A stretch of DNA of 55,777 nucleotides from Parcubacteria group bacterium (GCA_943354475.1 CALRBT010000005.1:1-55777); one strand, 5' to 3'; numbered from the stretch's first letter, positions 11,719 through 55,777 are shown. Numbers and translations are program-made. Notes: a model not told the origin generated them from the sequence alone.

Positions 11719-11979
11719 CTATTTGGGAGGACAAGGCCTCCATCCATCCCTACCTAAACCTTTATGGTAAACTACTTGTTCCCTTGTGCCGTCCGACTTT
11801 TCTCGCCAACCAATGATATCTGGGTACTCCGGAATCAAGGTGTCGTTATCACCATCCTCTTCTTCCCAAACCCAACGATTGATCTCTGTGCCGACAGATT
11901 GTAGGTAAACAACATCGAGCTTGATGACACCTCTTGCCAGTGCAGAGCGAAGCATCCACTTGGGTGAATCGTTGTGCAT
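11719..11979 (-). CDS. Small orphan hypothetical protein
   Basis: ORF from ATG 11979 (MHNDSPK) with upstream GAGGGGAG SD-like sequence; flanked by hairpins at 11669 and 12013-12049. Confidence 0.5.
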   Translation of the reverse strand: MHNDSPKWMLRSALARGVIKLDVVYLQSVGTEINRWVWEEEDGDNDTLIPEYPDIIGWREKSDGTREQVVYHKGLGRDGWRPCPPK

Positions 11980-12219
11980 AACATAATCTCCCCTCGTTGT
12001 ACTGGGACAACGTAAACCCCCTCGTAGAATCATCATACGAGGGGGTTTATTTGATAAAAATTAGAAATAGAAATATCAACTCAATCCTCTTGCATGAGAT
12101 ATTGAGCTCATATGTGTATTTAAAGTAAAAGTAGGTTGATACATATTAGCTGGTACTATGTACGCAGAAATCTGGAGAGTGATCTCCAGATTTCAAAGTG
12201 GGAACAATATTTGAAAATA

Positions 12220-12429
12220 TTATCTGGAAACGTATGGAAGGAGGCCCATGAATCGTGCTCGTTTGATAGCCTCTGAGAGTGCTCGCTGATGCTTGGCACT
12301 TACCCCTGTCTTCTTGGGTGAAAGAATTCGAGCGTGCGGATTGAGGAACTTCTTCAGCGTCTCGACATCCTTATAGTCGATATGTTTGATATTATTTTGG
12401 GTGAAATAGCACTGTTTTAGATTTTTCAT
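12220..12429 (-). CDS. rpsR: 30S ribosomal protein S18
   Basis: [39 protein letters not shown]. Confidence 0.97.
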
Positions 12430-12494
12430 AATGTGGGCTTCAGATTAGCAGAAAGTGGTAATTTTGACAAGTTCTGATTAACTAAAGTTCGTTA

Positions 12495-12617
12495 AGGGTT
12501 TGGATAGGTGGATGCAATTCTAGGAGCAAGGAGGCTGATTTCTGTAGACGTACTAAACGTACGGCGGAGGAGATCAACGACGCAGCGACAAAGAAGTGCG
12601 CCTCCTATACGAGCCCT
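12495..12617 (-). repeat. Structured intergenic repeat family A, copy 1 (after the ssb stop)
   Basis: Core similar to copies at 45563 and 48915 (..tgatttctgtagacgtac-loop-gtacggcgga..acgacgcagcgacaaagaa), enclosed in an imperfect outer stem. Confidence 0.8.
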
Positions 12618-13106
12618 CTAAAAAGGGATATCGTCGGGGTTGATATCCTCTTCTGGATACTCAATAGTGTCCAATGCCGCCGACTCTTGAGGTGCAGGAG
12701 CCTTAGATTTGCTTCCTGAACTCGCTGAAGCTGGGGCAGATGAATCCTGTCCAAAGCTTCCACCAGTCCCTCCTGTGCTCGCTCTAGGGCCAAATTGGAG
12801 ACGGTCACAGATGATTTCAGTCCGGTACTTCTTGGTGCCATCTGGAGCATCCCAACTCCTTGTGCTCATCCTGCCTTGTACCAAGACAGAGCTTCCTTTC
12901 TTTAGATAAGAAGAGACCAGGTCAGCCTGTTTTCCAAACACAACAACATTGTGATACTCGACACTCTCCTGTTTAGCTCCTTTGGTATCCTTCCAGACAC
13001 GATTGGTAGCAAGTGAGAAACTGGCCACATTATTACCATTTGGCATCGCACGAATCTCAGGATCACGGGTCAAATTACCAAAAACAAAAGCAATGTTTAA
13101 ATACAT
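12618..13106 (-). CDS. ssb: Single-stranded DNA-binding protein
   Basis: GNLTRDPE OB-fold start, acidic tail DDIPF. Confidence 0.98.
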   Translation of the reverse strand: MYLNIAFVFGNLTRDPEIRAMPNGNNVASFSLATNRVWKDTKGAKQESVEYHNVVVFGKQADLVSSYLKKGSSVLVQGRMSTRSWDAPDGTKKYRTEIICDRLQFGPRASTGGTGGSFGQDSSAPASASSGSKSKAPAPQESAALDTIEYPEEDINPDDIPF

Positions 13107-13147
13107 TCAAATTTTAAATTAGCTATTAAAAACTTTGGAACGTTTTA

Positions 13148-13672
13148 TTAGGCAATAACCAAATCCTCAATAGTCTTATCAAGTTCAGCTTCAGTGATTA
13201 CTGGTTTGTCCACCACCTCTTCATCAACCGTCTTTGTGTCTTTGATGTCTCCTAATACCGGAATAGATTTAAGAACAACTGGTTTCTTAGCAGGCATCGT
13301 GCTCTCTCGAACGGTGTTAATAAGGAGAAATCGAACAAGGTGAGGAAATGCATCAAGGAATTTCTTTAGCTCTAGAGCCTTGCTTCGATCAAGATCAAAC
13401 TTTACCCAAGAGAAATGCGCCTGAGTAACACTCTGTTTCTTACCACCAAGGAGGTACGACATTGGGTAAGCAAGTGGGACCACTGCTACATCACCGGAAG
13501 CGATAAAGTTACCTCCAAATTCTGTAATTTTGGCCTTAATTTTTTCGATTTCACCAGCCACTTCAGAGGCAGGGACGGCAGGAGAAAGGTGGAAGCCAAG
13601 CTCATAAACCTTGCTTTCGCCTGGTTCTAGCTCTACTTCGACGACTTTCTTTGAGATTTTCTTCTTTTCCAT
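13148..13672 (-). CDS. rpsF: 30S ribosomal protein S6 with N- and C-terminal extensions
   Basis: YELGFHLSP, LAYPM, LVRFLLI motifs; rpsF-ssb-rpsR synteny; start trimmed to ATG 13672. Confidence 0.88.
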   Translation of the reverse strand: MEKKKISKKVVEVELEPGESKVYELGFHLSPAVPASEVAGEIEKIKAKITEFGGNFIASGDVAVVPLAYPMSYLLGGKKQSVTQAHFSWVKFDLDRSKALELKKFLDAFPHLVRFLLINTVRESTMPAKKPVVLKSIPVLGDIKDTKTVDEEVVDKPVITEAELDKTIEDLVIA

Positions 13673-25475: not shown

Positions 25476-26665
25476 TATTTTTTCTTACTCATTTCTTTTC
25501 GCAAAATCACGTCAATCTTCTCCGCAATCTTTTTCATATCCTTTTCTTTCTTCCCACGAGTTGTCTCAGCAGGAGTTCCAATTCTGATTCCTGAAGGATC
25601 CATCGGGCTACGGGTATCAAAGGGAATCGTGTTTTTATTGACAATAATGTCGTTTTTCTCTAACACATCCGTTGCGTCCTTACCGCCAATCCCCTTTCCA
25701 TCCATCCAAGTATCAACCAAGATCAAGTGACTGTCCGTCCCCCCTGAGACAATACGCCAGCCGAGTCCTGCCAAGCTCGCTGACAGTTCTTTGGCATTGG
25801 CAATAATCTGCTTTGCATAAATCTTAAATGCTGGAGTTGCTGCTTCTCCGAGCGCGACTGCGACCGCTGCAATCTGATTTAAATGTGGACCACCCTGCAT
25901 ACCAGGGAAAATTGCTTTATCAATCAAGATATCGATATTCCTTGAATCTTTCTTTGAGAAAATTAGGGCACTGCGTGGACCGCGCAATGTCTTGTGTACG
26001 GTAGTCATCACCACATCAGCGTATGGAAACGGCGATGGATAAACACCACCTGCAACCAAACCACCCAAGTGCGACATATCAACGAGTAGGTATGCTCCCA
26101 CTGAATCTGCAATTTCTCTAAATTTTTTAAAATCAATCTTGCGTGGATAGGCAGTAAATCCTGCGACAATGATATCTGGTTTATGCTCAAGAGCTATTTT
26201 CGAAATCTCCTCGTAATTAATTACTTCTGTTTTTTTATCGACACCGTAAGGAACCTGCTTCCAGAATTTACCCGTTATTGAAACCTTGTGTCCGTGCGTA
26301 AGATGCCCGCCGTGATCGAGACTCATTCCCATAATCTTGCCGCCAGTCGGCACGAGTGCGAGATAAACTGCGACGTTTGCAGGAGAGCCAGAGAGTGCTT
26401 GTACGTTAACCGCCCAACTGTTCGGAGAGAGCTTAAAGAGTTTCAGAGCTCTCGCCTTTGCCAAGTCCTCCACTTTGTCCGTCACGGAGTTGCCCGCATA
26501 GTAACGTTTGTGCGGATAGCCTTCAGCATATTTGTTGGTAAGCTCGGAGCCAAGAGCTTGAAGTACATCTCTCGAGACGTAATTCTCTGACGCAATGAGA
26601 TTAATCACCTTCTTTGAGCGAGCTGATTCTTCTTTGATTAATTTTTCGATTTGTTTGTCTTTCAT
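25475..26665 (-). CDS. glyA: Serine hydroxymethyltransferase
   Basis: LIASEN, NKYAEGYP, GGHLTHG, TTVHKTLRGPR; start trimmed to ATG 26665. Confidence 0.98.
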   Translation of the reverse strand: MKDKQIEKLIKEESARSKKVINLIASENYVSRDVLQALGSELTNKYAEGYPHKRYYAGNSVTDKVEDLAKARALKLFKLSPNSWAVNVQALSGSPANVAVYLALVPTGGKIMGMSLDHGGHLTHGHKVSITGKFWKQVPYGVDKKTEVINYEEISKIALEHKPDIIVAGFTAYPRKIDFKKFREIADSVGAYLLVDMSHLGGLVAGGVYPSPFPYADVVMTTVHKTLRGPRSALIFSKKDSRNIDILIDKAIFPGMQGGPHLNQIAAVAVALGEAATPAFKIYAKQIIANAKELSASLAGLGWRIVSGGTDSHLILVDTWMDGKGIGGKDATDVLEKNDIIVNKNTIPFDTRSPMDPSGIRIGTPAETTRGKKEKDMKKIAEKIDVILRKEMSKKK

Positions 26666-44531: not shown

Positions 44532-44666
44532 GGATAGCTAGAGAGAATCGGGGTCAAGTTTCTAAGTTCGCAAGCTCACTAAGAACTTCCTCCCCGGACT
44601 CGCCGACAAGCACTCACTTTGTTCGTCTTGTATACCGGCTCCGTCTTTCAATACTCTCTAGCTCAC
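44532..44666 (-). repeat. tRNA-end-bracketed module (family B1) associated with tRNA-His
   Basis: Ends resemble the tRNA-His 3' end (gctagagagaatcg) in direct and inverted orientation; core closely similar to 51226-51347. Confidence 0.8.
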
Positions 44667-44807
44667 GCCAAAAATATAATCGCTAAACGCTCCGCTTTTT
44701 TCTCATTATTTTTGGGTGCCGTAGTCGAGGACGTTAGAACTGTGTTTGAGCGATTGGATGATGCGAGCATCTACATTCCTGACCTACATCCAGTGGGGTT
44801 GGTGTAG

Positions 44808-45326
44808 TCATTGATGCACAACGGACTGCGGCTTGTTGGGTTTACTTAATTCTTCCGTTGCAATATCAATAAATACTTTGTGAATGGCGCGGAATTCAGT
44901 TGTCATCTCGTTGTATGACTGAGATATAACTTTCTTTTCTCCTGACAGCATCGTTACGGAAATCTTAGCAGAACTTTCATCTGGAAGTCCCTTGATAGCT
45001 ATGTTTTTTATGTCCTCAAATTTGTTTTCGCTGAGAGAACGCACCAATCTTTCAAAGTTCGCCTGATTTCCCTTTTCTTCATAGGAAATTGTTCCCTGAA
45101 ATATTTTTCTTACGGATGTATCGCCAGCAGAATTAACCGAAACCTCATAACCTCCGTATAGACCACTCACATCAGACATTTCAATTTGCGCAATATCCTG
45201 ACCCAAACTCCCTGTGGTTGGTGTAGATTTGATTTGCGTTGCCTGTTTTTGAGATATCCCAAAATAATATCCAAGCAAAAGTAACACAGCGACGACCCCG
45301 ACGATATAGATTACTTTGTTCTTCAT
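44808..45326 (-). CDS. Membrane-anchored hypothetical protein
   Basis: ATG 45326 (MKNKVIYIVGVVAVLLLLGYYF), N-terminal TM helix; lies between tRNA-His and its duplicated end. Confidence 0.65.
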   Translation of the reverse strand: MKNKVIYIVGVVAVLLLLGYYFGISQKQATQIKSTPTTGSLGQDIAQIEMSDVSGLYGGYEVSVNSAGDTSVRKIFQGTISYEEKGNQANFERLVRSLSENKFEDIKNIAIKGLPDESSAKISVTMLSGEKKVISQSYNEMTTEFRAIHKVFIDIATEELSKPNKPQSVVHQ

Positions 45327-45397
45327 CCCAAAAGTATACCAAGTTCGAACTGATTTTACAACCTTGTTGGTGCGTATTATCTCTTCAATTCCCGTTA

Positions 45398-45470
45398 GGG
45401 TGGCTAGAGAGAATCGAACTCTCGATACCAGTTCCACAAACTGGAGTTTTACCACTAAACTATAGCCACC
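45398..45470 (-). tRNA. tRNA-His(GTG)
   Basis: Cloverleaf ggtggctatag..ccagt-ttGTGga-actgg..gttcgattc..tagccacc, with encoded G-1. Confidence 0.96.
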
Positions 45471-45562
45471 ATATAAACCAGAGGTGTTAGGTTATAGGAA
45501 ATAGGTTTTGGTAAAACCTACATTGATCTAAAACCTAACATCTATCACCAAACCTGTTTCCG

Positions 45563-45688
45563 GTAGGTCGCCTGTAGTGGATACAATTCGAGGCGCGAGG
45601 AAGTCGATTTCTGCAGACGTACTTAAACGTACGACGAAAGAAATCGACAACGAAGCAACAAAGAAGTGTACCGCTACAGGCGACCTAC
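45563..45688 (-). repeat. Structured intergenic repeat family A, copy 2 (overlapping the PduO-type gene stop)
   Basis: Outer stem gtaggtcgcctgtagtgg/ccgctacaggcgacctac around the shared core. Confidence 0.88.
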
Positions 45689-46242
45689 TTATAGTCAGGT
45701 GACTGCTCTGTTATACCAGATTTATGGTTAGAAAGTCGAGCAAGTGCATATAGGATGCTCGAGAGTCGATTGAGGTAAGCCAAAGTAAAAGCTCCTACTT
45801 TTATATTCCCCTCCTCTGAAACTGCAACCACGCGACGCTCTGCTCGACGTGCCAAGGTGCGCGCGAAGTCAAAATATGATGAGAGTTCGCCTCCTCCCGA
45901 TATAAAGAATGAGTGAATCGGTGGCAACTCTTTTTCAATTTCTGCGATTACCTTTTCAACCTCACGAACCTTTTCTTCTTCTACTGTCATTGGTGTCCCC
46001 GCAAGCTCTGCTTGAATAATAAAAAGTGTTTTTTGGATATCGTGAACTAGGTCAGAAAACAAAACGCCCTCAGTACCGACCCTGAAACCAGCATCCTTTG
46101 ATTTAAGTTTTGCAAAACCTAAAAATGAATTAACTTCGTCCATGGAACCCAACGCCTCTGATATTACTGAGCTCTTCGAGATACGTTGATTACAACCAAA
46201 TAATCCAGTATCCCCCTTGTCCCCTTTTCCTGTGTAGAGCAT
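45685..46242 (-). CDS. ATP:cob(I)alamin adenosyltransferase (PduO-type)
   Basis: YTGKGDKGDTGL, ARTLARRAER, YLNRLSS; start trimmed to ATG 46242. Confidence 0.92.
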   Translation of the reverse strand: MLYTGKGDKGDTGLFGCNQRISKSSVISEALGSMDEVNSFLGFAKLKSKDAGFRVGTEGVLFSDLVHDIQKTLFIIQAELAGTPMTVEEEKVREVEKVIAEIEKELPPIHSFFISGGGELSSYFDFARTLARRAERRVVAVSEEGNIKVGAFTLAYLNRLSSILYALARLSNHKSGITEQSPDYK

Positions 46243-46253
46243 ATTTTTGTTAA

Positions 46254-46577
46254 TTATTTCCAAACTCGTTTTTTATTTTCTTCTTCCTTTTCTCTAAACG
46301 CCTTCTCCAAATCAATGTCATAGTGATTGCAAATGTCGAGGAGATATATAAAAACATCAGAAGCTTCTTTACCAACATCAAAACTATCTGAACCAATATC
46401 CACCTTCATCTTTGAAGCCTTCCTGCCAGCTTTTGCCAATTCCCCACACTCCTCCAAAAATAGCATGAATATTTCCGAAATCTGCCCTCCTTCAAACCCA
46501 CGCTCAACTATCATCTCTTTGATGTACTGCTGATAATCAGCAAGGGTTGGATTTTGTTTTAAGTGCAAGTTGCTCAC
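46254..46577 (-). CDS. MazG-like nucleotide pyrophosphohydrolase
   Basis: EECGELAKA..KEASDVFIYL..AFREKEEENKKRVW. Confidence 0.88.
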   Translation of the reverse strand: MSNLHLKQNPTLADYQQYIKEMIVERGFEGGQISEIFMLFLEECGELAKAGRKASKMKVDIGSDSFDVGKEASDVFIYLLDICNHYDIDLEKAFREKEEENKKRVWK

Positions 46578-46597
46578 CGTTTATTTGTTAAGTGTAC

Positions 46598-47428
46598 TTA
46601 TAAGTTGTGGGTTAAGTCACCGATTGGAGCAAGGCTCATTCGATCAAGTTTTGGAGCGAGTTGTTTCAAAAAACCTTTCAAATTTTCTATTTCCTGCTCG
46701 AGCTTTTTAGCTCCAGTAATCGATTTTTCACTAAAAATAAAAAGCTTTTGATTAACAAGTTCTAAATCGTGCTCCCAACTATTATTTAGCAGGTGTGAGA
46801 GAATATCTGGAGTAAAAATCTCAAATACCTCAATCTCATACTCTTTGGGTACATAAAGCTTAAACATTTTTTCAAATTCAGTAGGTAGTGAAATATTTGG
46901 TAGAAAAAACTGTTTGATGCCGGATAGGTTTTTGTTATGAATATTGTTCAAATATAAATGTGGGAAACTTCCCAAGAAAGTAGTCTCAAACACGGTATAA
47001 AAATGACTTCGAGAGTTTTTACCTGTACCGGTAATGTAGGAGTATTCAAAGATACGAAAATTGTGGTTATCGAGCTTTCCACTCATTCCATGTCCAACGG
47101 TACCAGCACTACCTTCTCGGAACATTAGGGCGGATTTTTCAATTGAAAAGTTGTGTGTGTATTGATAACCAAATTTTTGTGCAATTTCCCGCCAGAGTAG
47201 CTCCTTAAGTTTTGCGGCACGCTTGACGAAAAGGACGATTTGGAATACCCCCAGAAAACTAATCGTAAGGATTCCAACAAAAAGCAAAAGATATGGAGCA
47301 TCTCCTTTTCCATATACATACCAAAGGGATACCAGAGATATAATCACAATTTCAACCCCAGCAACACCGATCATAAGGAACCGGATCTGCTCTAGTGCTT
47401 TTTTACTTTTCTCTTCCATTGAGTTCAT
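46598..47428 (-). CDS. Two-TM membrane hypothetical protein
   Basis: 276-aa ORF with two N-terminal hydrophobic helices. Confidence 0.7.
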   Translation of the reverse strand: MNSMEEKSKKALEQIRFLMIGVAGVEIVIISLVSLWYVYGKGDAPYLLLFVGILTISFLGVFQIVLFVKRAAKLKELLWREIAQKFGYQYTHNFSIEKSALMFREGSAGTVGHGMSGKLDNHNFRIFEYSYITGTGKNSRSHFYTVFETTFLGSFPHLYLNNIHNKNLSGIKQFFLPNISLPTEFEKMFKLYVPKEYEIEVFEIFTPDILSHLLNNSWEHDLELVNQKLFIFSEKSITGAKKLEQEIENLKGFLKQLAPKLDRMSLAPIGDLTHNL

Positions 47429-47506
47429 TTTAAATTTATGGAAAGGTCTTTCATGCGAGCAGAGAATTTGCTCGCATTGGACATCCTCAATTCACTTCAT
47501 TCATTT

Positions 47507-47593
47507 TGGTGCCCGAGAGAGGACTTGAACCTCCACACCCGTAAGGGCACATCCACCTCAAGGATGCTTGTCTACCAATTTCAACACCCGGGC
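47507..47593 (-). tRNA. tRNA-Leu(GAG)
   Basis: gcccggg..catcc-ttGAGgt-ggatg, long variable arm, ggttcaagtcc, encoded CCA. Confidence 0.96.
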
Positions 47594-47657
47594 AATCACA
47601 CAGCGTTACTATACCAAACCTCATAAAAAACAAAAGAGGACTTTCGTCCCCTTTTGT

Positions 47658-48110
47658 TTACTCTTCTGTTTTTTCAACCACCTCCTCTGGAGCTTCTTCT
47701 GGCTCTACGGCCTCAACAACATTGTTTGCTTTGCGTGAGTGCTTCATATGCTTTTTAACCTCTTTGGCCGCTTTATCGCGGATGTAGTAGAGCTTTGAGC
47801 GACGAACTTGTGCGGTACGAACAATCTCAATCTTATCAATCATTGGGGAATAGAGTGGAAAGATCTTCTCAACACCGACACCGCTGGCAATCTTGCGAAC
47901 TGTAAAGGTTCCGCCTGCTTCACTGCCGTGTTTACAAGCAAGAACAAGTCCTTCAAAGGCCTGGAGGCGTACCTTTTCCTTCTTTTCCTTATCTTTCATA
48001 TCTCGCTCAACAATCCGCTGGGTAACACGCACGGTGTCCCCCGCTTTAATGCCAAGTTTCTTGCGACTTTCCATATTAACTGGAGATGTTTTGATGGTAG
48101 TTGTATTCAT
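47658..48110 (-). CDS. rplS: 50S ribosomal protein L19
   Basis: [40 protein letters not shown]; start trimmed to ATG 48110. Confidence 0.98.
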
Positions 48111-48144
48111 ATCTTGTAGACGATAATCTAACACACCGTGCCTA

Positions 48145-48876
48145 TTACTGCAAATTATTGAACTCCTCTAGTGCTGCTAGAAAATCTGGCGGGTACGGAG
48201 CCTCCACTGTAGTTGGTTTACCTGCAACATTCAGGAAAGTAATCTCCCTAGCGTGGAGTGCTGTCCGCTCAAAACCAAGCATCTTCGGCTGATTTTCAGC
48301 ATAGAGTTTGTCGCAGATAACTGGATGATGAATTGCCTTAAAATGGACCCTGATCTGGTGAGTACGCCCTGTCTTTGGCTCTACTTCAACAAAGGTTAGC
48401 CCCTTAGTCCGTCCAAGGACACGATAGAGCGTCTGTGCTTCACGAAGCTCTCCTCTTGCGCCCGGTTGAGCTGACCAGCGTCTAAAATCCTTGCTACTCT
48501 TCCCTATTGGTCGGTTAATTTCACCTTCGTCGTCTTTGAGGTTGCCATAGACAAATGTGTGGTACTTTTTTCCCACCACCCTATCTTGAAATTGTTGTTT
48601 GAGGTGAAGGAATGCGTTTTGATTCTTTGCCAAAATAAGGACACCCGATGTCTCCCGATCAAGCCGGTGAACAATACCGGGGCGAGTAATAGCCTCACCA
48701 TTTGCCAATACCAACGGCTCTCCAACCTCCTTCATCTCTGGATGCTTTACCAACACCCAAGAAGCTACTGACTCCTCTATAGTGCGTCCATCTGCATGTA
48801 CCACAAGTCCTGCAGGCTTATTAATGACGATATAATCGCCGTCTTCAAAAAGAATGGGAATTTCTAAACTACTCAT
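48145..48876 (-). CDS. RluA family pseudouridine synthase
   Basis: [31 protein letters not shown]; real start ATG 48876 (the upstream extension runs through repeat A copy 3). Confidence 0.95.
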
Positions 48877-48914
48877 CCGCCTAGTATACAAAGAAAACGA
48901 GATTTCACTAACAT

Positions 48915-49037
48915 GGCACCTGCAAATTTGGATGAAGTTCGAGGCGCGAGGAAACTGATTTCTGCAGACGTACTCAAGGTACGACGGAAGAAATCGGCGA
49001 CGAAGCAACGAAGAAATTCGCCAAATTTGCAGGTGCT
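48915..49037 (-). repeat. Structured intergenic repeat family A, copy 3 (overlapping the uppS stop)
   Basis: Outer stem gcacctgcaaatttgg/ccaaatttgcaggtgc around the shared core. Confidence 0.88.
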
Positions 49038-49722
49038 ACTTTCCGTGTCGTCGGTCGCGTTCACTATATTCTTCCAAAATTTTTAAAAATTCTTCTTTGC
49101 TAAAATCTGGCCAAAGAGTGTCACAGAAGAAAAGTTCACTATAAGCGATTTGCCACAGAAGAAAGTTTGAGAGTCGTTTCTCTCCGCCCGTTCGAATTAC
49201 CAAGTCAGGGTCAGGAACTCCTGCGGTCCAAAGAAACTGTCCGAAGTTACCTTCATCTACACCCTCCTGAACCTCTTTTGGTGCTTGCGCAAAGCGTTTT
49301 GCCGCTTCAACGATTTCAGCACGTCCTCCATAGGAAATAGCAATGACCAGTAAGAAACCGTCTCGCTCTTTTGTCTCCTCTTCAACTTCTTTCAAGTAAC
49401 CTTGAAGGTCTTCGGGTAGTCGCTCGATTTGCCCAGCGAATTTAATTTTTATATTTTCATCCTTCCAAAAATCTTTTTCTTGATGGAAAGCGATGCGAAT
49501 CAGGTCAAAAAGATAGCTCACCTCTTCTTCGGCTCGTTTCCAATTTTCTGTTGAAAAAACGTACACTACGGCTGATTTCACACCAGCTTCTTTAGCCCAA
49601 AGGACACAGTCCTTGAGCCTATCCTTGCCAGCCTTATGACCCTCAATTGAAGAAAGTCCTTTGCCCTTTGCCCATCTACGATTACCATCGATAATTACTC
49701 CGATCGAATTTGGAACTTTCAT
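49036..49722 (-). CDS. uppS: Undecaprenyl/polyprenyl diphosphate synthase
   Basis: IIDGNRRWA, FSTENWKR, IRTGGEKRLSNFLLWQ. Confidence 0.97.
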   Translation of the reverse strand: MKVPNSIGVIIDGNRRWAKGKGLSSIEGHKAGKDRLKDCVLWAKEAGVKSAVVYVFSTENWKRAEEEVSYLFDLIRIAFHQEKDFWKDENIKIKFAGQIERLPEDLQGYLKEVEEETKERDGFLLVIAISYGGRAEIVEAAKRFAQAPKEVQEGVDEGNFGQFLWTAGVPDPDLVIRTGGEKRLSNFLLWQIAYSELFFCDTLWPDFSKEEFLKILEEYSERDRRHGK

Positions 49723-49731
49723 TTCTTTAAA

Positions 49732-50007
49732 TTAATAGACAATATTAAAGCCAGTAAAGCTGAGATTTGGATTATCCCACGTAACTTCCACATTTTCAAC
49801 AGAAGACAAAAGAGATCCTCGGTGGAGATAACTGATTAGTTGCACAAGAAGTTCCTTCTCTCCTTGAGCAACAACCCACACGGATCCGTCAACAAGATTC
49901 TTTACTGTACCGACAAGCCCCAATTTTCGTGCTCGTCGCTTTACAAAATCTCGATACATAACCATCTGGACACGGCCACTGACCCTTACCTCTATTTGAG
50001 CGTTCAT
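49732..50007 (-). CDS. acyP: Acylphosphatase
   Basis: VSGRVQMVMYR..GTVKNLVDGSV. Confidence 0.93.
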   Translation of the reverse strand: MNAQIEVRVSGRVQMVMYRDFVKRRARKLGLVGTVKNLVDGSVWVVAQGEKELLVQLISYLHRGSLLSSVENVEVTWDNPNLSFTGFNIVY

Positions 50008-50123
50008 TAAAAAATTTTAACATAAACCCACAAAAACGAGCAGCGCAACAAATTGTCAGGCGTCGATTAACATATTGCGTAAATATCGATATACTTTAGA
50101 AACTAGCATTAACTCATTACATC

Positions 50124-51068
50124 ATGGATTTCCTTCGTCGAATTGGGCTTTCGCTTACCACTGGTTATATTTTTTTCTTTTTTGGTGAACGTATTTTTTG
50201 GTCACTTCCTAACAATCCCGAACTGAACACACCGATTGACCTCATGGCAACATGGCTTGTTTACTCATTTTTTGCCTACCTCTGCTTCATCATAATCAAG
50301 CAGTGCCGTGTCCGTTCGGTGTGGGCAGTGTTTTTAGTTGCCGCACTTTATGGTTGGCTTATTGAAGGGGTCTTCTCTTTAACCACCTTTGGTATTGGCA
50401 GTATGCCGTTCCCTTATTCAATTGTTTGGACAGCTCTGGCGTGGCACGCGCTCTGTGTTATGGGTGGCTGGTATTGGATGCTACAACTACTACAAACTTC
50501 AACAAAAAAAGTACTGATAGGTTCCATGCTCCTTGGTATCTTTTGGGGAGTTTGGTCACTCTACTGGCCAACTACTGGTTTGGTGTCGACACCTGTAAAC
50601 TATCTTGTGTATACACTTTTCTGGACAGCTCTCTATATCCTTGCACTTCATAGTTACCACTGGCTAAGCAGTGAGATATTTTCTGCAACAAAAACAGAGA
50701 AGGTAATATTAGGACTTATCACTCTTGCTTGGTACTGCGGTTTTACGGTGACACAAGGAGGCTTCTTACTTCCCCTTACTGTACTTCCCATCCTCTTTGG
50801 AATAATTTATTTTGCTTTACAAAAAAACAAACGGAAAGAGACCTCGCCTGACGTCCTCACTTCTATCAATAAAAGAATCTCTTTCAAACGATCCGTCTTT
50901 ATTCTCCTCGCCCCTCTTCTTGCCACAGCCATCTTTAGCTCTGGATTTTATTTTCCGACCAACATTCCTTACCTAGTGACACTGAGCACTCTCGGCATAG
51001 GAATGTTTGTAGTGAGTTTGTATAACGTATTTAGAACCAAGAAGTCTTCCCAGGGAATTGATAAATAA
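50124..51068 (+). CDS. Polytopic membrane hypothetical protein
   Basis: Many TM helices; ALYGWLIEG..LAWHAL motif. Confidence 0.75.
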   Translation: MDFLRRIGLSLTTGYIFFFFGERIFWSLPNNPELNTPIDLMATWLVYSFFAYLCFIIIKQCRVRSVWAVFLVAALYGWLIEGVFSLTTFGIGSMPFPYSIVWTALAWHALCVMGGWYWMLQLLQTSTKKVLIGSMLLGIFWGVWSLYWPTTGLVSTPVNYLVYTLFWTALYILALHSYHWLSSEIFSATKTEKVILGLITLAWYCGFTVTQGGFLLPLTVLPILFGIIYFALQKNKRKETSPDVLTSINKRISFKRSVFILLAPLLATAIFSSGFYFPTNIPYLVTLSTLGIGMFVVSLYNVFRTKKSSQGIDK

Positions 51069-51101
51069 TCCATTTTAGTTATACTGTATCCGTCCTTAAA
51101 A

Positions 51102-51174
51102 GGGCGATTAGCTCAGTTGGTAGAGCAACTCATTTACACTGAGAAGGTCGGGGGTTCAAGTCCCTCATCGCCCA
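51102..51174 (+). tRNA. tRNA-Val(TAC)
   Basis: gggcgattagctcagttggtagagc..ttTACac..ggttcaagtccctcatcgccca; TTGATA/TATACT promoter-like boxes at 51058-51085. Confidence 0.96.
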
Positions 51175-51225
51175 CTAAACAAAAGAGACAATGTATCACA
51201 TTGGTGATTATTGTTTATGAGGCAA

Positions 51226-51347
51226 GATGAGGGACTTGAAAGACGGAGGCGATATACAAGACGAGCTTTGCGAGGACTTGTCGCCGAGTCGGGGTCGAGA
51301 AAATTTTGTTTACAAAATTATTCGTGACCAAGTCCCTCATCGCCCAC
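51226..51347 (+). repeat. tRNA-end-bracketed module (family B1) after tRNA-Val
   Basis: Starts with an inverted copy (gatgagggacttgaa) and ends with an exact 19-bp direct copy (caagtccctcatcgcccac) of the tRNA-Val 3' end. Confidence 0.88.
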
Positions 51348-51400
51348 AAAAACTTAAAAACCCTAAGTGAGCTTAGGGTTTTTAAGTTTTTGTGGGCGAT
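51339..51400. repeat. Perfect inverted repeat with 29-bp arms
   Basis: atcgcccacaaaaacttaaaaaccctaag-tgag-cttagggtttttaagtttttgtgggcgat. Confidence 0.92.
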
Positions 51401-51427
51401 AGTAAGCAACCTGCCTTGCTTACGTGA

Positions 51428-51627
51428 AGGACTTGAAGAGTTTGAACGTATCGCGCGCAACGCAGTGAGCACGATATGTAAGGGAACACTTATACTCTTG
51501 AGTAAAAACCGTACAGAATCTGTAAGATTCAAGTCCTACTGACTTGAAAAGGTTCTCCCACATTTTTGAGGATATGTGTATCCGAAAAAATGGGAAACCT
51601 GAACTGAACCTGTAAGGTTCTAGTCCC
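51428..51627 (+). repeat. Two further T-arm-bracketed modules (family B2) after tRNA-Val
   Basis: 51428-51537 aggacttgaa..ttcaagtcct; 51541-51627 gacttgaa..ttctagtccc; both have a hairpin ending ctgtaag near the 3' end. Confidence 0.75.
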
Positions 51628-51671
51628 AAATGTTTTACTCGAGGTTTACCCCCCCCAGTAAAACAGTAAAA

Positions 51672-51839
51672 CAGGAGTCTCCCCCAACGGGGGCGGGTAT
51701 CTTTCTCGTTTTGCTTCGCAAAACATAGAAGGGTCTTTCGAGACCTACACAGTAGGAATCTTTCCCTACGGGAACGGTACAGGCTTCATATCGTACTCGC
51801 TTTGCTCCGTGCGATATATTCAGCCTTTTCGATTCCTAC
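51672..51839 (-). repeat. Two T-arm-bracketed modules (family B2-like) downstream of tRNA-Arg
   Basis: 51752-51839 gtaggaatcgaa..gattcctac and 51672-51748 gtaggtctcgaa..gactcctg (minus strand) copy the tRNA-Arg T-stem. Confidence 0.72.
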
Positions 51840-51888
51840 ACGCTCGTGCATTGGCACGAGCTCGGGGGGACACTCACTACGTTCGTTG

Positions 51889-51960
51889 TCCCCCCGGTAG
51901 GAATCGAACCTACATCAAGAGCTTAGAAGTCTCTTGTTCTATCCATTGAACTACGGGGAG
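51889..51960 (-). tRNA. tRNA-Arg(TCT)
   Basis: ctccccgtagttcaatggatagaac..ctTCTaa..gtaggttcgattcctaccgggggga. Confidence 0.94.
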
Positions 51961-55678: not shown

Positions 55679-55763
55679 GGAGGGGTCGCATAGTGGTTTA
55701 GTGCACCGGTCTTGAAAACCGGAGTACCGCAAGGTACCGAGAGTTCGAATCTCTCCCCCTCCG
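55679..55763 (+). tRNA. tRNA-Ser(TGA)
   Basis: ggaggggtcgc..ccggt-ctTGAaa-accgg, long variable arm, gttcgaatc..ccctccg; TTGAGA/TATACT boxes upstream. Confidence 0.96.
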
Positions 55764-55777
55764 CAAATTGAAACTTC

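Follow-up and report, generated by a model that had tools for sequence, protein, structure and literature searches.

The window (the whole 55,777-nt stretch of Parcubacteria group bacterium DNA analyzed here) carries, downstream of a tRNA-His and a tRNA-Val gene, two members of a large and apparently undescribed family of small folded DNA elements found behind Patescibacteria tRNA genes. The fold is kept by compensatory changes, on the tRNA-sense strand only. Spacer and core pass from one tRNA gene to another of different identity, with the arms X' and X2 rewritten for each new tRNA, and orthologous sites show gain, loss, and swapping of cores. With confidence about evenly balanced against doubt, we read both sequences as copies of a mobile but non-autonomous cassette, folded as single-stranded DNA, whose arms are templated from the target. 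Such a cassette would lie immediately 3' of tRNA and tmRNA genes within one Patescibacteria order and would consist of X (the tRNA 3' part, from T-loop to discriminator), a spacer hairpin S (often terminator-like), X' (the reverse complement), a family-specific Y-shaped core with hairpins P2 and P3, and X2 (a direct copy). The features of the two loci are:

45398-45469, minus strand: tRNA-His(gtg) (ARAGORN and Rfam tRNA); its segment from T-loop to 3' end (X) is the source of the His arms
45361-45333, minus strand: promoter-like site of the cargo ORF
44808-45326, minus strand: cargo ORF of 172 aa, assigned to no family, between tRNA-His and the His element
44714-44727, minus strand: X0, cgactacggcaccc, a putative decayed copy of the tRNA-His 3' end
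44670-44713, minus strand: His-element spacer hairpin S (AAAAATAATGAG..GATTATATTTTT); a homologous spacer belongs to an Arg-linked copy (L025) from another genome
44654-44669, minus strand: His-element X', which copies the tRNA-His 3' end in inverted orientation, with an exact match of 9 nt (44662-44654)
44551-44653, minus strand: B-type core of the His element (junction, conserved hairpin P2, variable hairpin P3)
44537-44550, minus strand: X2 of the His element, a direct copy
51058-51085, plus strand: promoter-like site of tRNA-Val(tac)
51102-51175, plus strand: tRNA-Val(tac) (ARAGORN and Rfam), with X at 51155-51175
51176-51225, plus strand: Val B spacer hairpin S, with a homologous spacer in the second Val copy (contig C2)
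51226-51240, plus strand: X' of the Val B element
51241-51328, plus strand: B-type core of the Val element (P2 and P3)
51329-51347, plus strand: X2 of the Val B element

The core pattern TTGAAAGACGGAGNCGNTATACAAGACGA (29 nt) had two exact matches in the window, at 44623-44651 (minus strand) and 51236-51264 (plus strand), and was absent from all 100 dinucleotide shuffles; the original prediction that both elements share one structured core was thus borne out. When folded, both form the same three-way junction, or Y-shaped core (z-scores of the two elements, -5.3 and -2.9 as RNA and -5.2 and -3.2 as DNA), and covariance model R1 matched the His element at 44537-44662 (122 bits) and the Val B element at 51225-51342 (123.8 bits). 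The terminal stem had been described as an inverted plus a direct copy of the tRNA 3' end, and this holds at both loci. X' of the Val element, gatgagggacttgaa (51226-51240), is the exact reverse complement of 51155-51169 in tRNA-Val(tac), and X2, caagtccctcatcgcccac (51329-51347), is an exact copy of 51157-51175; for the His element, the tRNA-His 3' end is matched by gctagagag (44662-44654) in inverted and by cgattctctctagc (44550-44537) in direct orientation. These copies cover the T-loop, T-stem, and acceptor 3' strand of the local tRNA. Contrary to what had been supposed, the His element does not adjoin its tRNA: tRNA-His lies approximately 730 nt upstream, with the 172-aa ORF between them. 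X0 may be a decayed earlier copy of the tRNA-His 3' end, pushed away from the tRNA by the cargo.

When genomes of the candidate phyla radiation were scanned with a covariance model of the core, as had been suggested, matches turned up in 115 of the 151 genomes covered for the same order, with as many as 18 in a single genome; a phylum-wide sample of 151 genomes contained 6 carriers. Genomes in the carrier order measure 0.5-1.1 Mb; in 36 of the 151 from this order, several of them complete, no element was found. Approximately 15 of the 38 tRNA genes in the genome of the window (G000) carry an element, with at least four core types. Members of the family are found behind tmRNA as well. An 18-mer of the core had 83 matches in public genomes, 47 of them with a same-strand tRNA end no more than 120 nt upstream, mostly at 57-69 nt and representing 15 amino-acid identities. 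Across 78 family members, the inverted arm matched its own tRNA at 8.95 of 13 positions, compared with a mean of 5.34 (maximum, 5.86) over 200 shuffles of the tRNA assignment, as expected if the flanks match the nearest tRNA. X and X2, the direct repeat of the tRNA 3' part, were present in 76 of the 78 elements with a tRNA within 120 nt upstream. X' reverse-complements X exactly from T54; it always stops at that position and abuts the core. A core lying mostly away from tRNA genes, with flanks unrelated to them, had been named as evidence against a tRNA-targeting element; the cores lie mostly just behind tRNAs, and their flanks match locally. Membership of a known Rfam family had been named as well, and none appeared: at the gathering threshold, Rfam 15 returned only four tRNAs over the whole window, and local E-value scans of both elements and of 51340-51900 returned plant miRNA hairpin noise far below gathering. 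The phage, plasmid, and viral-contig collections gave no match to the element.

Between genomes, median core identity was 0.67 for copies behind the same tRNA (n = 107) and 0.66 for copies behind different tRNAs (n = 3697), and thus core identity is not tied to tRNA identity. The strongest evidence for the predicted non-autonomous, tRNA-targeting element with ends templated from the target comes from two congeners, G001 and G063. The copy behind tRNA-Leu(gag) in G001 and the copy behind tRNA-Ile(gat) in G063 differ at 2 of 113 core positions and have a common spacer, whereas the flanking genomes are only 82-87% identical; in both copies X, X', and X2 each match the local tRNA. At the orthologous Leu(gag) site of G063, S and X' are kept, and the core, P3, and most of X2 are missing. 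The Pro and Trp elements of G001 are represented by stumps in G063, and the two genomes have different core types at Gly(gcc). Stumps remain in these presence/absence cases, so that no clean empty site was seen, and the cases could be deletions rather than insertions.

The active form of the cassette would be single-stranded DNA of the tRNA-sense strand, either as lagging-strand template or as an excised or incoming single strand. In it, X' may pair with X or X2 to yield a duplex of the T-arm and acceptor segment of the target, and spread would occur at the universally conserved T-loop. Within the cassette reading, we tentatively consider hairpin-guided template switching (copy-choice) by ordinary replication enzymes; a trans-acting, hairpin-specific enzyme, such as a HUH or Xer-type protein, appears less probable. 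Many copies have a hairpin H inside X', exactly at the acceptor/T-stem junction, which sits awkwardly with simple fold-back copying. A possible but rather unlikely reading is a new class of mobile DNA, a folded single strand of approximately 150 nt that encodes no protein, targets the T-loop common to tRNA and tmRNA genes, has both arms rewritten per target, and spreads either by host-replication copy-choice or by retargeting a universal host enzyme (for example, the single Xer) with a target-mimic hairpin.

A search for a co-occurring recombinase, HUH enzyme, or reverse transcriptase had been suggested, and none was consistent across the genomes searched. Clustering of the ORFs lying within 2.5 kb of 117 loci showed recurrence of housekeeping families only, with no recurring integrase. 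The Y1 transposase (PF01797) had no match in G000, G001, or G063. Y1-family proteins were present in 91 of the 151 genomes of the order, with no association between Y1 and the element (72/43/19/17, P = 0.33). At ten Y1 loci no core flanked the Y1 gene, other repeats being found there instead; the only R1 match among these loci was behind a tRNA-Gly (L239). Each genome tested had a single, Xer-like tyrosine recombinase, that of G000 scoring 233 bits against NF040815 (cut-off, 220). Cas1 (PF01867), expected for casposon-like insertion at tRNA ends, was found in none of five genomes. Reverse transcriptases occurred in two of five element-rich genomes, and the only one in G000 is of the DGR type, with an Avd-like neighbor, on another contig; a reverse transcriptase beside the element or consistently co-occurring with it, as in a retroelement (retron, group II intron, or DGR), was not found. 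No free or circular form of the element was found.

The fold itself is strongly conserved. Among 115 distinct copies, 95% of pair cells were paired, and 29 of 33 pairs had changed on both sides. The covariation score was 0.509, compared with 0.150 in shuffles (0 of 500 reached 0.509) and at most 0.082 in slid controls. In P2 and P3, G:T pairs were more frequent than A:C pairs (50 vs. 19). At the P2 tip, most loops are 3-nt GNA closed by C:G inside GCGNAGC, a motif found 79 times in the sense and 0 times in the antisense orientation; tandem G.A motifs and GNRA-like loops also occur. The G:T over A:C asymmetry and the GNRA-like loops fit RNA as well as DNA, and it is possible, if unlikely, that the element is a structured RNA trailer, acting either in cis, as an antisense clamp on the 3' half of the tRNA, or as a tRNA-like small RNA (an acceptor/T minihelix in which the core replaces the T-loop, released by RNase P and RNase Z). 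Such an RNA would be in keeping with the strong covariation, the tRNA-sense orientation and narrow distance from the tRNA end, the tandem G.A motifs and GNRA-like loops, the presence of the family across the order, and the greater stability of the sense RNA folds (-49 vs. -40 and -46 vs. -39 kcal/mol for sense vs. antisense in the two window elements). It would also suit the position of H, which splits X' exactly where the tRNA body would emerge, and the A-type copies, which usually have no terminator between tRNA and element and are therefore probably co-transcribed with the tRNA. However, a terminator-like hairpin with a T run usually precedes the B-type copies. In both arms, X' and X2, the acceptor portion decays, and at changed X2 positions X' agrees with X in 165 cases and with X2 in 33; a full acceptor mimic is thus not under selection. 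PMC13037366 describes GCGNAGC as "mini-hairpin DNA," far more stable as DNA than as RNA, so that these loops would be weak in an RNA. Rapid turnover and core swapping at orthologous tRNAs are also unlike a fixed processing signal. The tRNA-mimic or antisense trailer offered in the original prediction is thus weakened, by the free decay of acceptor arm parts and the many copies behind a terminator-like hairpin, without losing all plausibility; if the element does act as RNA, it would represent a class of structured RNA linked to tRNAs that is both new and very widespread.

That 115 of 151 genomes as small as these have the element could reflect a host function instead. We consider it less probable than the RNA trailer that the element is a host-domesticated DNA structure, its sense-strand hairpins downstream of strongly transcribed tRNA genes serving, for example, as signals for single-strand priming or restart, or as terminator/insulator modules, with spread by ordinary recombination only. 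The proportion of tRNA genes occupied in G000, the conservation of the core and of the closing stem over its inner 8-10 bp, and the lack of a dedicated enzyme among those searched for agree with it, as do GCGNAGC mini-hairpins, known at primase-dependent, single-strand priming origins (PMC13037366). But the 36 genomes in which the element was not found, and the differences between congeners in which tRNAs bear it, speak against such a role, which would not require locally matching arms.

More improbable is a passive by-product, in which snap-back errors at T-arm and terminator palindromes yield direct-inverted-direct triplications with the cores as fillers. X, X', and X2 do have this arrangement, and each of the two junctions lies at a hairpin; perfect palindromes occur with arms as long as 36 bp (L016), as do forms with S and X' but no core, and no enzyme was found. 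Nevertheless, no tRNA of G000 has an inverted arm without a core, the cores form conserved families, with covariation seen across more than 100 genomes, and X' always ends at T54, against the core.

Direct repeats from the T-loop to the tRNA end are the classic sublocation of att sites, and both ends here carry the tRNA 3' part as a direct repeat (76 of 78), tmRNA is also targeted, cargo genes lie between tRNA and element at some loci, and G000 encodes three large serine recombinases, of which two neighbor tRNA genes; yet attL/attR scars of integrase-bearing prophages or islands are very improbable, since a simple att duplication, as had been argued, yields the direct repeat alone and leaves X' and the conserved folded core over, no integrase recurs inside the element or beside it at the 117 loci, the units are 140-180 nt and tandemly repeated, and phage, plasmid, and viral collections hold no match.

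The cassette reading has partial parallels in several known systems. Like integron attC sites and cassettes, the elements are strand-specific structured modules with a stem from inverted core sequences, empty or ORF-carrying, arrayed at a fixed entry site, and with the fold kept in variable arms; they differ in entering at the tRNA/tmRNA T-loop rather than attI, in the stem rewritten per target, and in the sequence-conserved Y core. The integron core sites R''/R' are RYYYAAC and GTTRRRY closing the hairpin, whereas the stem ends here are the T-loop TTCRA and its complement; G000 has no IntI, its sole tyrosine recombinase scoring 128.9 bits against the integron integrase model TIGR02249 (cut-off, 265). 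In IMEX of the CTX-phi type, a folded single-stranded attP mimics the chromosomal target of the host Xer. The likeness lies in a single-stranded hairpin reproducing the target duplex, the lack of an own recombinase, tandem arrays, and a single host Xer; here the target is the tRNA 3' end rather than dif, the units are gene-less, and use of the host Xer by the element is pure conjecture. REPIN/REP sequences with RAYT and IS200/IS605 miniatures, on whose single-stranded hairpins HUH Y1 transposases act, are likewise short, non-autonomous, intergenic hairpin repeats with strand-specific folding, but REPINs lack target-derived arms and any tie to tRNAs; a REPIN or IS200/IS605 miniature was rejected on the Y1 results above. 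In IS110/IS1111 bridge RNA, a conserved scaffold likewise carries short segments matching the target on both strands; the matching segments of the element pair together and are 10-20 nt long. No DEDD recombinase (PF01548) exceeded the cut-off in G000, the only hit scoring 20.4 bits (cut-off, 29) inside a 538-aa frame. MITEs have terminal inverted repeats, a short target-site duplication, and a related autonomous transposon; here the closing stem is an inverted repeat and X/X2 a direct repeat, but both are target-derived and 10-20 nt long, and no autonomous relative was found around the 117 loci or in the phage, plasmid, and viral collections.

If the cassette reading is true, folded cassettes, selfish or domesticated and apparently undescribed, occupy approximately 40% of the tRNA genes of these minimal genomes, and their arms, unlike those of MITEs, REPINs, attC sites, and att scars, are regenerated from the target. 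The cassette would then be a natural example of programmable targeting, protein-free or driven by a host enzyme, of the T-loop as a universal sequence, and would account for assemblies breaking at tRNA loci in these organisms; R1 would be a usable marker for one Patescibacteria order.

tRNA-targeting integrative elements and their derivatives without an integrase (CIMEs and tycheposon satellites) share the insertion from T-loop to 3' end, the use of tRNA and tmRNA, the direct repeat, and the stacking of successive insertions behind one tRNA; the present elements differ in the additional inverted target copy, the conserved folded core, one core family at 15 or more tRNA identities, and the lack of an integrase in cis or, consistently, in trans. 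Tandem arrays of elements were seen, with units of 140-180 nt, and two Val loci have the same modules in the order B-A in one and A-B in the other. In the window, 51176-51887 holds five densely packed modules, the Val B element being followed by:

51348-51536, plus strand: A-type element (spacer hairpin, X'a gtgggcgat at 51392-51400, hairpin H at 51401-51423, X'b aaggacttgaa at 51427-51437, A core, X2 ttcaagtcc at 51528-51536)
51541-51600, plus strand: E-like module (X' gacttgaa, core AAGGTTCTCCCACATTT..)
51672-51748, minus strand: D-like module (X' gtaggtctcgaa, core AGACCCTTCTATGTTTTGCGAAGCAAAACGAGAAAG..)
51752-51887, minus strand: A-type element behind tRNA-Arg(tct) (loop, X'a at 51871-51863, H at 51862-51842, X'b at 51839-51828, A core, X2 gattcctac at 51760-51752)
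51888-51960, minus strand: tRNA-Arg(tct) (ARAGORN and Rfam)

The arms of the Arg(tct) element match the tRNA at 12 of 12 (X'b) and 7 of 7 (X'a) positions. The E-like and D-like modules, like X0, were read directly from the sequence; the E-like core resembles that of the element behind tRNA-Trp (contig C9), and the D-like core is nearly identical to that behind tRNA-Arg(gcg) (contig C7).

The 29-nt core pattern had exactly two matches in the window, at 44623-44651 (minus strand) and 51236-51264 (plus strand), and none in 100 shuffles. Each match belongs to an element built of the same parts: a spacer hairpin (S), an inverted copy (X') of the tRNA 3′ part X (T-loop to discriminator), a core, and a direct copy of X (X2).

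51102-51175, plus strand: tRNA-Val(tac)
51176-51225: S of the Val element, a 50-nt spacer hairpin directly behind tRNA-Val(tac)
51226-51240: X' of the Val element, gatgagggacttgaa, exact reverse complement of tRNA positions 51155-51169
between X' and X2, 88 nt: core of the Val element
51329-51347: X2 of the Val element, caagtccctcatcgcccac, exact copy of 51157-51175
44713-44670, minus strand: S of the His element
44669-44654, minus strand: X' of the His element
44653-44551, minus strand: core of the His element
44550-44537, minus strand: X2 of the His element

Both elements had the same three-way junction fold, in which X' pairs with X2 to form the closing stem P1, hairpin P2 is conserved and hairpin P3 is variable. 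The original prediction of one core in two elements was thus confirmed. Its second claim, that the ends match the neighboring tRNA, held for the Val element, whose arms are exact, and for the arms of the His element, but tRNA-His is not an immediate neighbor: it lies approximately 730 nt upstream, separated from the element by a promoter-like site, a 172-aa ORF that belongs to no known family and an older, decayed copy of the tRNA 3′ end. Five tRNAs were predicted in the window (ARAGORN). The intergenic region 51176-51887 was full of five modules, namely, B, A and E-like types on the plus strand and, from tRNA-Arg(tct), A and D-like types on the minus strand. The order of modules differed between the two Val loci (B-A vs. 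A-B). A perfect long palindrome, cgcccacaaaaacttaaaaaccctaag tgag cttagggtttttaagtttttgtgggcg, occupies 51339-51400 and takes in the copy of the tRNA-Val end; it resulted in spurious plant miRNA matches in Rfam E-value scans. At the other margin (55679-55777), the contig stops 13 nt past tRNA-Ser(tga), and the few trailer bases behind this gene, AAATTGAAACTTC, are similar to those that open a Ser-linked element of a different genome (L115).

In the genome containing the window (G000; 786 kb, 16 contigs), a third strong core copy followed tRNA-Val(gac), on contig C2. A covariance model of the B-type core (R1), built from 25 copies (alignment A2), added four weaker copies. The scan of further genomes proposed with the original prediction found R1 at E ≤ 1e-6 in 115 of 151 genomes of the order (103 of 134 among those of high quality), and a single genome had as many as 18 copies. 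In one family, R1 was present in 24 of 26 genomes. In a phylum-wide sample R1 was present in 6 of 151 genomes, four of them outside the order. The core pattern itself was found in 18 of 61 related genomes, and the pattern of a second core with the same plan (A type) in 31 of 61. Named records matching the core 18-mer were Patescibacteria MAGs, including Nomura-, Kaiser-, Yonath-, Vogel-, Campbell-, Taylor- and Zambryskibacteria and Paceibacteria, as well as MAGs labelled Saccharibacteria. Five matches in non-Patescibacteria MAGs (L081, L097, L098, L134 and L146) were rejected as chance, the rest of the core being missing. The core 18-mer had no match in viral contigs, the Val element none in phage and plasmid records, and a 31-mer of the tRNA-Val leader, used in the search for close strains, none in metagenome contigs. 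No Rfam family matched the element, so that a known family, which would have spoken against the original prediction, was not found. A full-text search of part of the literature returned no description of such elements; an earlier description may exist.

Structure statistics were calculated from 115 distinct copies (alignment A4). Because this alignment was fitted to the model, its values are biased in favor of structure: 95% of pair cells were paired, 29 of 33 pairs showed changes on both sides, and the covariation score was 0.509, compared with 0.150 in shuffles (0 of 500 reached the observed score) and at most 0.082 in slid controls. Pairs such as 20/157 (AU 50, GC 32, CG 26) leave little doubt about the structure despite the fitting. 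In P2 and P3, G:T pairs were more frequent than A:C pairs (50 vs. 19). The most frequent P2 tip loop was GAA (31), followed by GGA (11), GTA (5), AAA (5) and TTT (4), and all 79 occurrences of the heptamer GCGNAGC were in sense orientation. The 450-nt zones that follow tRNAs make up 2.2% of G000 and hold 14 of its 208 GCGNAGC occurrences, 12 of them sense and two antisense. PMC13037366 describes GCGNAGC and GCGNNAGC as "mini-hairpin DNA", much less stable as RNA than as DNA, and places such hairpins at primase origins of phages G4, St-1 and alpha3, at ssiA and at N4 hairpin promoters. The motif suggests that the tRNA-sense strand folds as single-stranded DNA, and folding as RNA would also be compatible with it.

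A same-strand tRNA ended at most 120 nt upstream of 47 of 83 core 18-mer matches, mostly at 57-69 nt, and lay within 400 nt, a range that covers arrays, for 56 of 83. These tRNAs represented 15 amino-acid identities. In the congeneric genomes G001 and G063, two units were located behind the tmRNA. X' always started at the complement of T54. The flanks had been expected to match the nearest tRNA, and X' did so for its own tRNA: on average 8.95 of the 13 positions compared (61-73) matched, vs. 5.34 when assignments were shuffled. An inverted copy of the tRNA's own T arm within 140 nt downstream scored at least 10 of 12 for 13 of 39 tRNAs in G000 and at most 9 of 12 for the remainder. For seven tRNAs the script set the wrong anchor or the contig ended too soon. 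Inspection by eye showed elements behind two of these seven, tRNA-Pro(tgg) on C8 and tRNA-Met at C1:24477; the total is thus approximately 15 of 38 tRNAs.

ARAGORN found 39 tRNAs and no tmRNA in G000, which is 98% complete, and relatives have tmRNA genes with elements; a weak core match at C15:9589-9721, behind an end reading ..GGGGTCCACC, could mark a tmRNA or tRNA-Ala remnant. Another kind of tRNA-end duplication was observed at C1:34455-34640 and C9:31991-32200: a second copy of the last 29 nt of tRNA-Gln(ctg) begins 41 nt later, followed by the trailer CCATATGCTAAGTCAGG.. that also stands behind tRNA-Gln(ttg), a gene adjoining a large serine recombinase gene. A LAGLIDADG-like ORF (C1:24930-25540) lies directly upstream of a split tRNA-like gene (approximately 25540-25840), whose halves are approximately 250 nt apart, possibly because of a group I intron in the anticodon loop. 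Two weaker core copies follow its 3′ half (C1:25917-26032 and C1:26113-26224).

Core identity was independent of tRNA identity. One copy behind tRNA-Leu(gag) in G001 and two tandem copies behind tRNA-Ile(gat) in G063 had the spacer in common and differed at 2 of 113 core positions, whereas X, X' and X2 were wholly unlike and each fitted the local tRNA, as anticipated for a non-autonomous tRNA-targeting element with ends templated from its target. Flanking genes of the two genomes were 82-87% identical. At the orthologous Leu(gag) site of G063, S differed by a single additional A. The X' behind it was degenerate and was followed directly by the final four bases of X2 and the common flank, so this site lacks the core, P3 and the greater part of X2. 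The Pro and Trp sites had elements in G001 and stumps in G063, Gly(gcc) and tmRNA unit 1 had unlike core types behind the same spacer, and Leu(caa) orthologues had one unit vs. two. Identical units formed tandem arrays (L023, L026/L030 and L043). Ectopic copies without a tRNA were found at L225 and at L231:7306, which begins inside the S loop, and one copy stood at the end of a protein gene (L148), where we read all three X/X2 differences as synonymous. Contigs of four DNA runs yielded no empty site and no informative joint; they broke at tRNAs and cores. Many core matches elsewhere were at contig starts or ends, and the element repeats probably fragment assemblies.

The three arms agreed at positions 56-63 in 61-72 of 76 copies, and agreement dropped steadily toward position 73; conservation of the closing stem is thus limited to its inner 8-10 bp. 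Where X2 differed from X, X' sided with X at 165 positions, compared with 33 at which it sided with X2. X' was the only deviating arm at 254 positions, in part because bulges shift the register. The acceptor part of the arms appears to record either their origin or an occasional fresh copy taken from the tRNA. The idea that mature tRNA binds X' as a primer was discarded, the complement to CCA being absent.

The conserved strand-specific fold, the strict tie to tRNA and tmRNA 3′ ends, the relocation to tRNAs of other identity, with arms rewritten, and the gain and loss between congeners together fit a non-autonomous mobile cassette. The route we favor would pass through single-stranded DNA: X' would pair with X or X2 and thereby copy the duplex of the target, and the conserved T-loop would anchor the events. 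Imprecise P3/X2 joints, the variable reach of X' and the absent enzyme incline us towards hairpin-guided template switching; counting against it are the order-wide persistence of the family and a family-conserved hairpin (H), which in the A type divides X' exactly between the acceptor and T-stem complements. The element may instead act as RNA, above all in its A-type copies, which lack a preceding terminator. Hairpin, hammerhead and other self-cleaving ribozymes were dropped, the Rfam signal being absent.

At G001 loci L218, L223, L224 and L217 (2880-3000), a nested repeat of approximately 55 nt, "module C" (TAATTTTTACGACC..GGAAGTACYCTTGTGG), was observed. Several elements contain it within P3, flanked by a CGACC direct repeat, and it was also found directly after X2 in opposite orientation; it seems to be a small mobile insert in its own right. 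A CCA after X2 was dropped as a mark of native copies, as this CCA is the start of another nested repeat.

The co-occurring recombinase, HUH nuclease or reverse transcriptase envisaged in the original prediction did not emerge: among the few protein families searched, none was linked to the element. G000 had one tyrosine recombinase, Xer-like (each of five other genomes also had a single one), three large serine recombinases without linkage to cores, and one reverse transcriptase, probably of DGR type; two of five element-rich genomes had a reverse transcriptase. TnpB and IS110 gave only sub-threshold matches in G000, Y1 transposase gave none there, and Cas1 was found in 0 of 5 genomes. Clustering of ORFs around 117 loci showed nothing recurrent but housekeeping genes. 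Y1-family proteins, many in frames of about 220-260 aa, were present in 91 of the 151 genomes of the order without correlation to the element, and the Y1 loci examined bear other repeats. At L239 (G264 contig C5), two identical 200-aa Y1 (HUH) RAYT-like genes stand in tandem (11926-12528 and 12796-13398), 136 nt behind tRNA-Pro(ggg) and with their own repeat, CAAAGGTGTCAGGAACCTTTG, on the flanks. The G000 reverse transcriptase (349 aa, motif IGNLTSQ) lies at C9:36144-37193 (L041 1291-2340, minus strand) and adjoins a 137-aa four-helix-bundle-like ORF (L041 2280-2693, plus strand); judging by its motifs, the pair is a putative diversity-generating retroelement (reverse transcriptase plus Avd).
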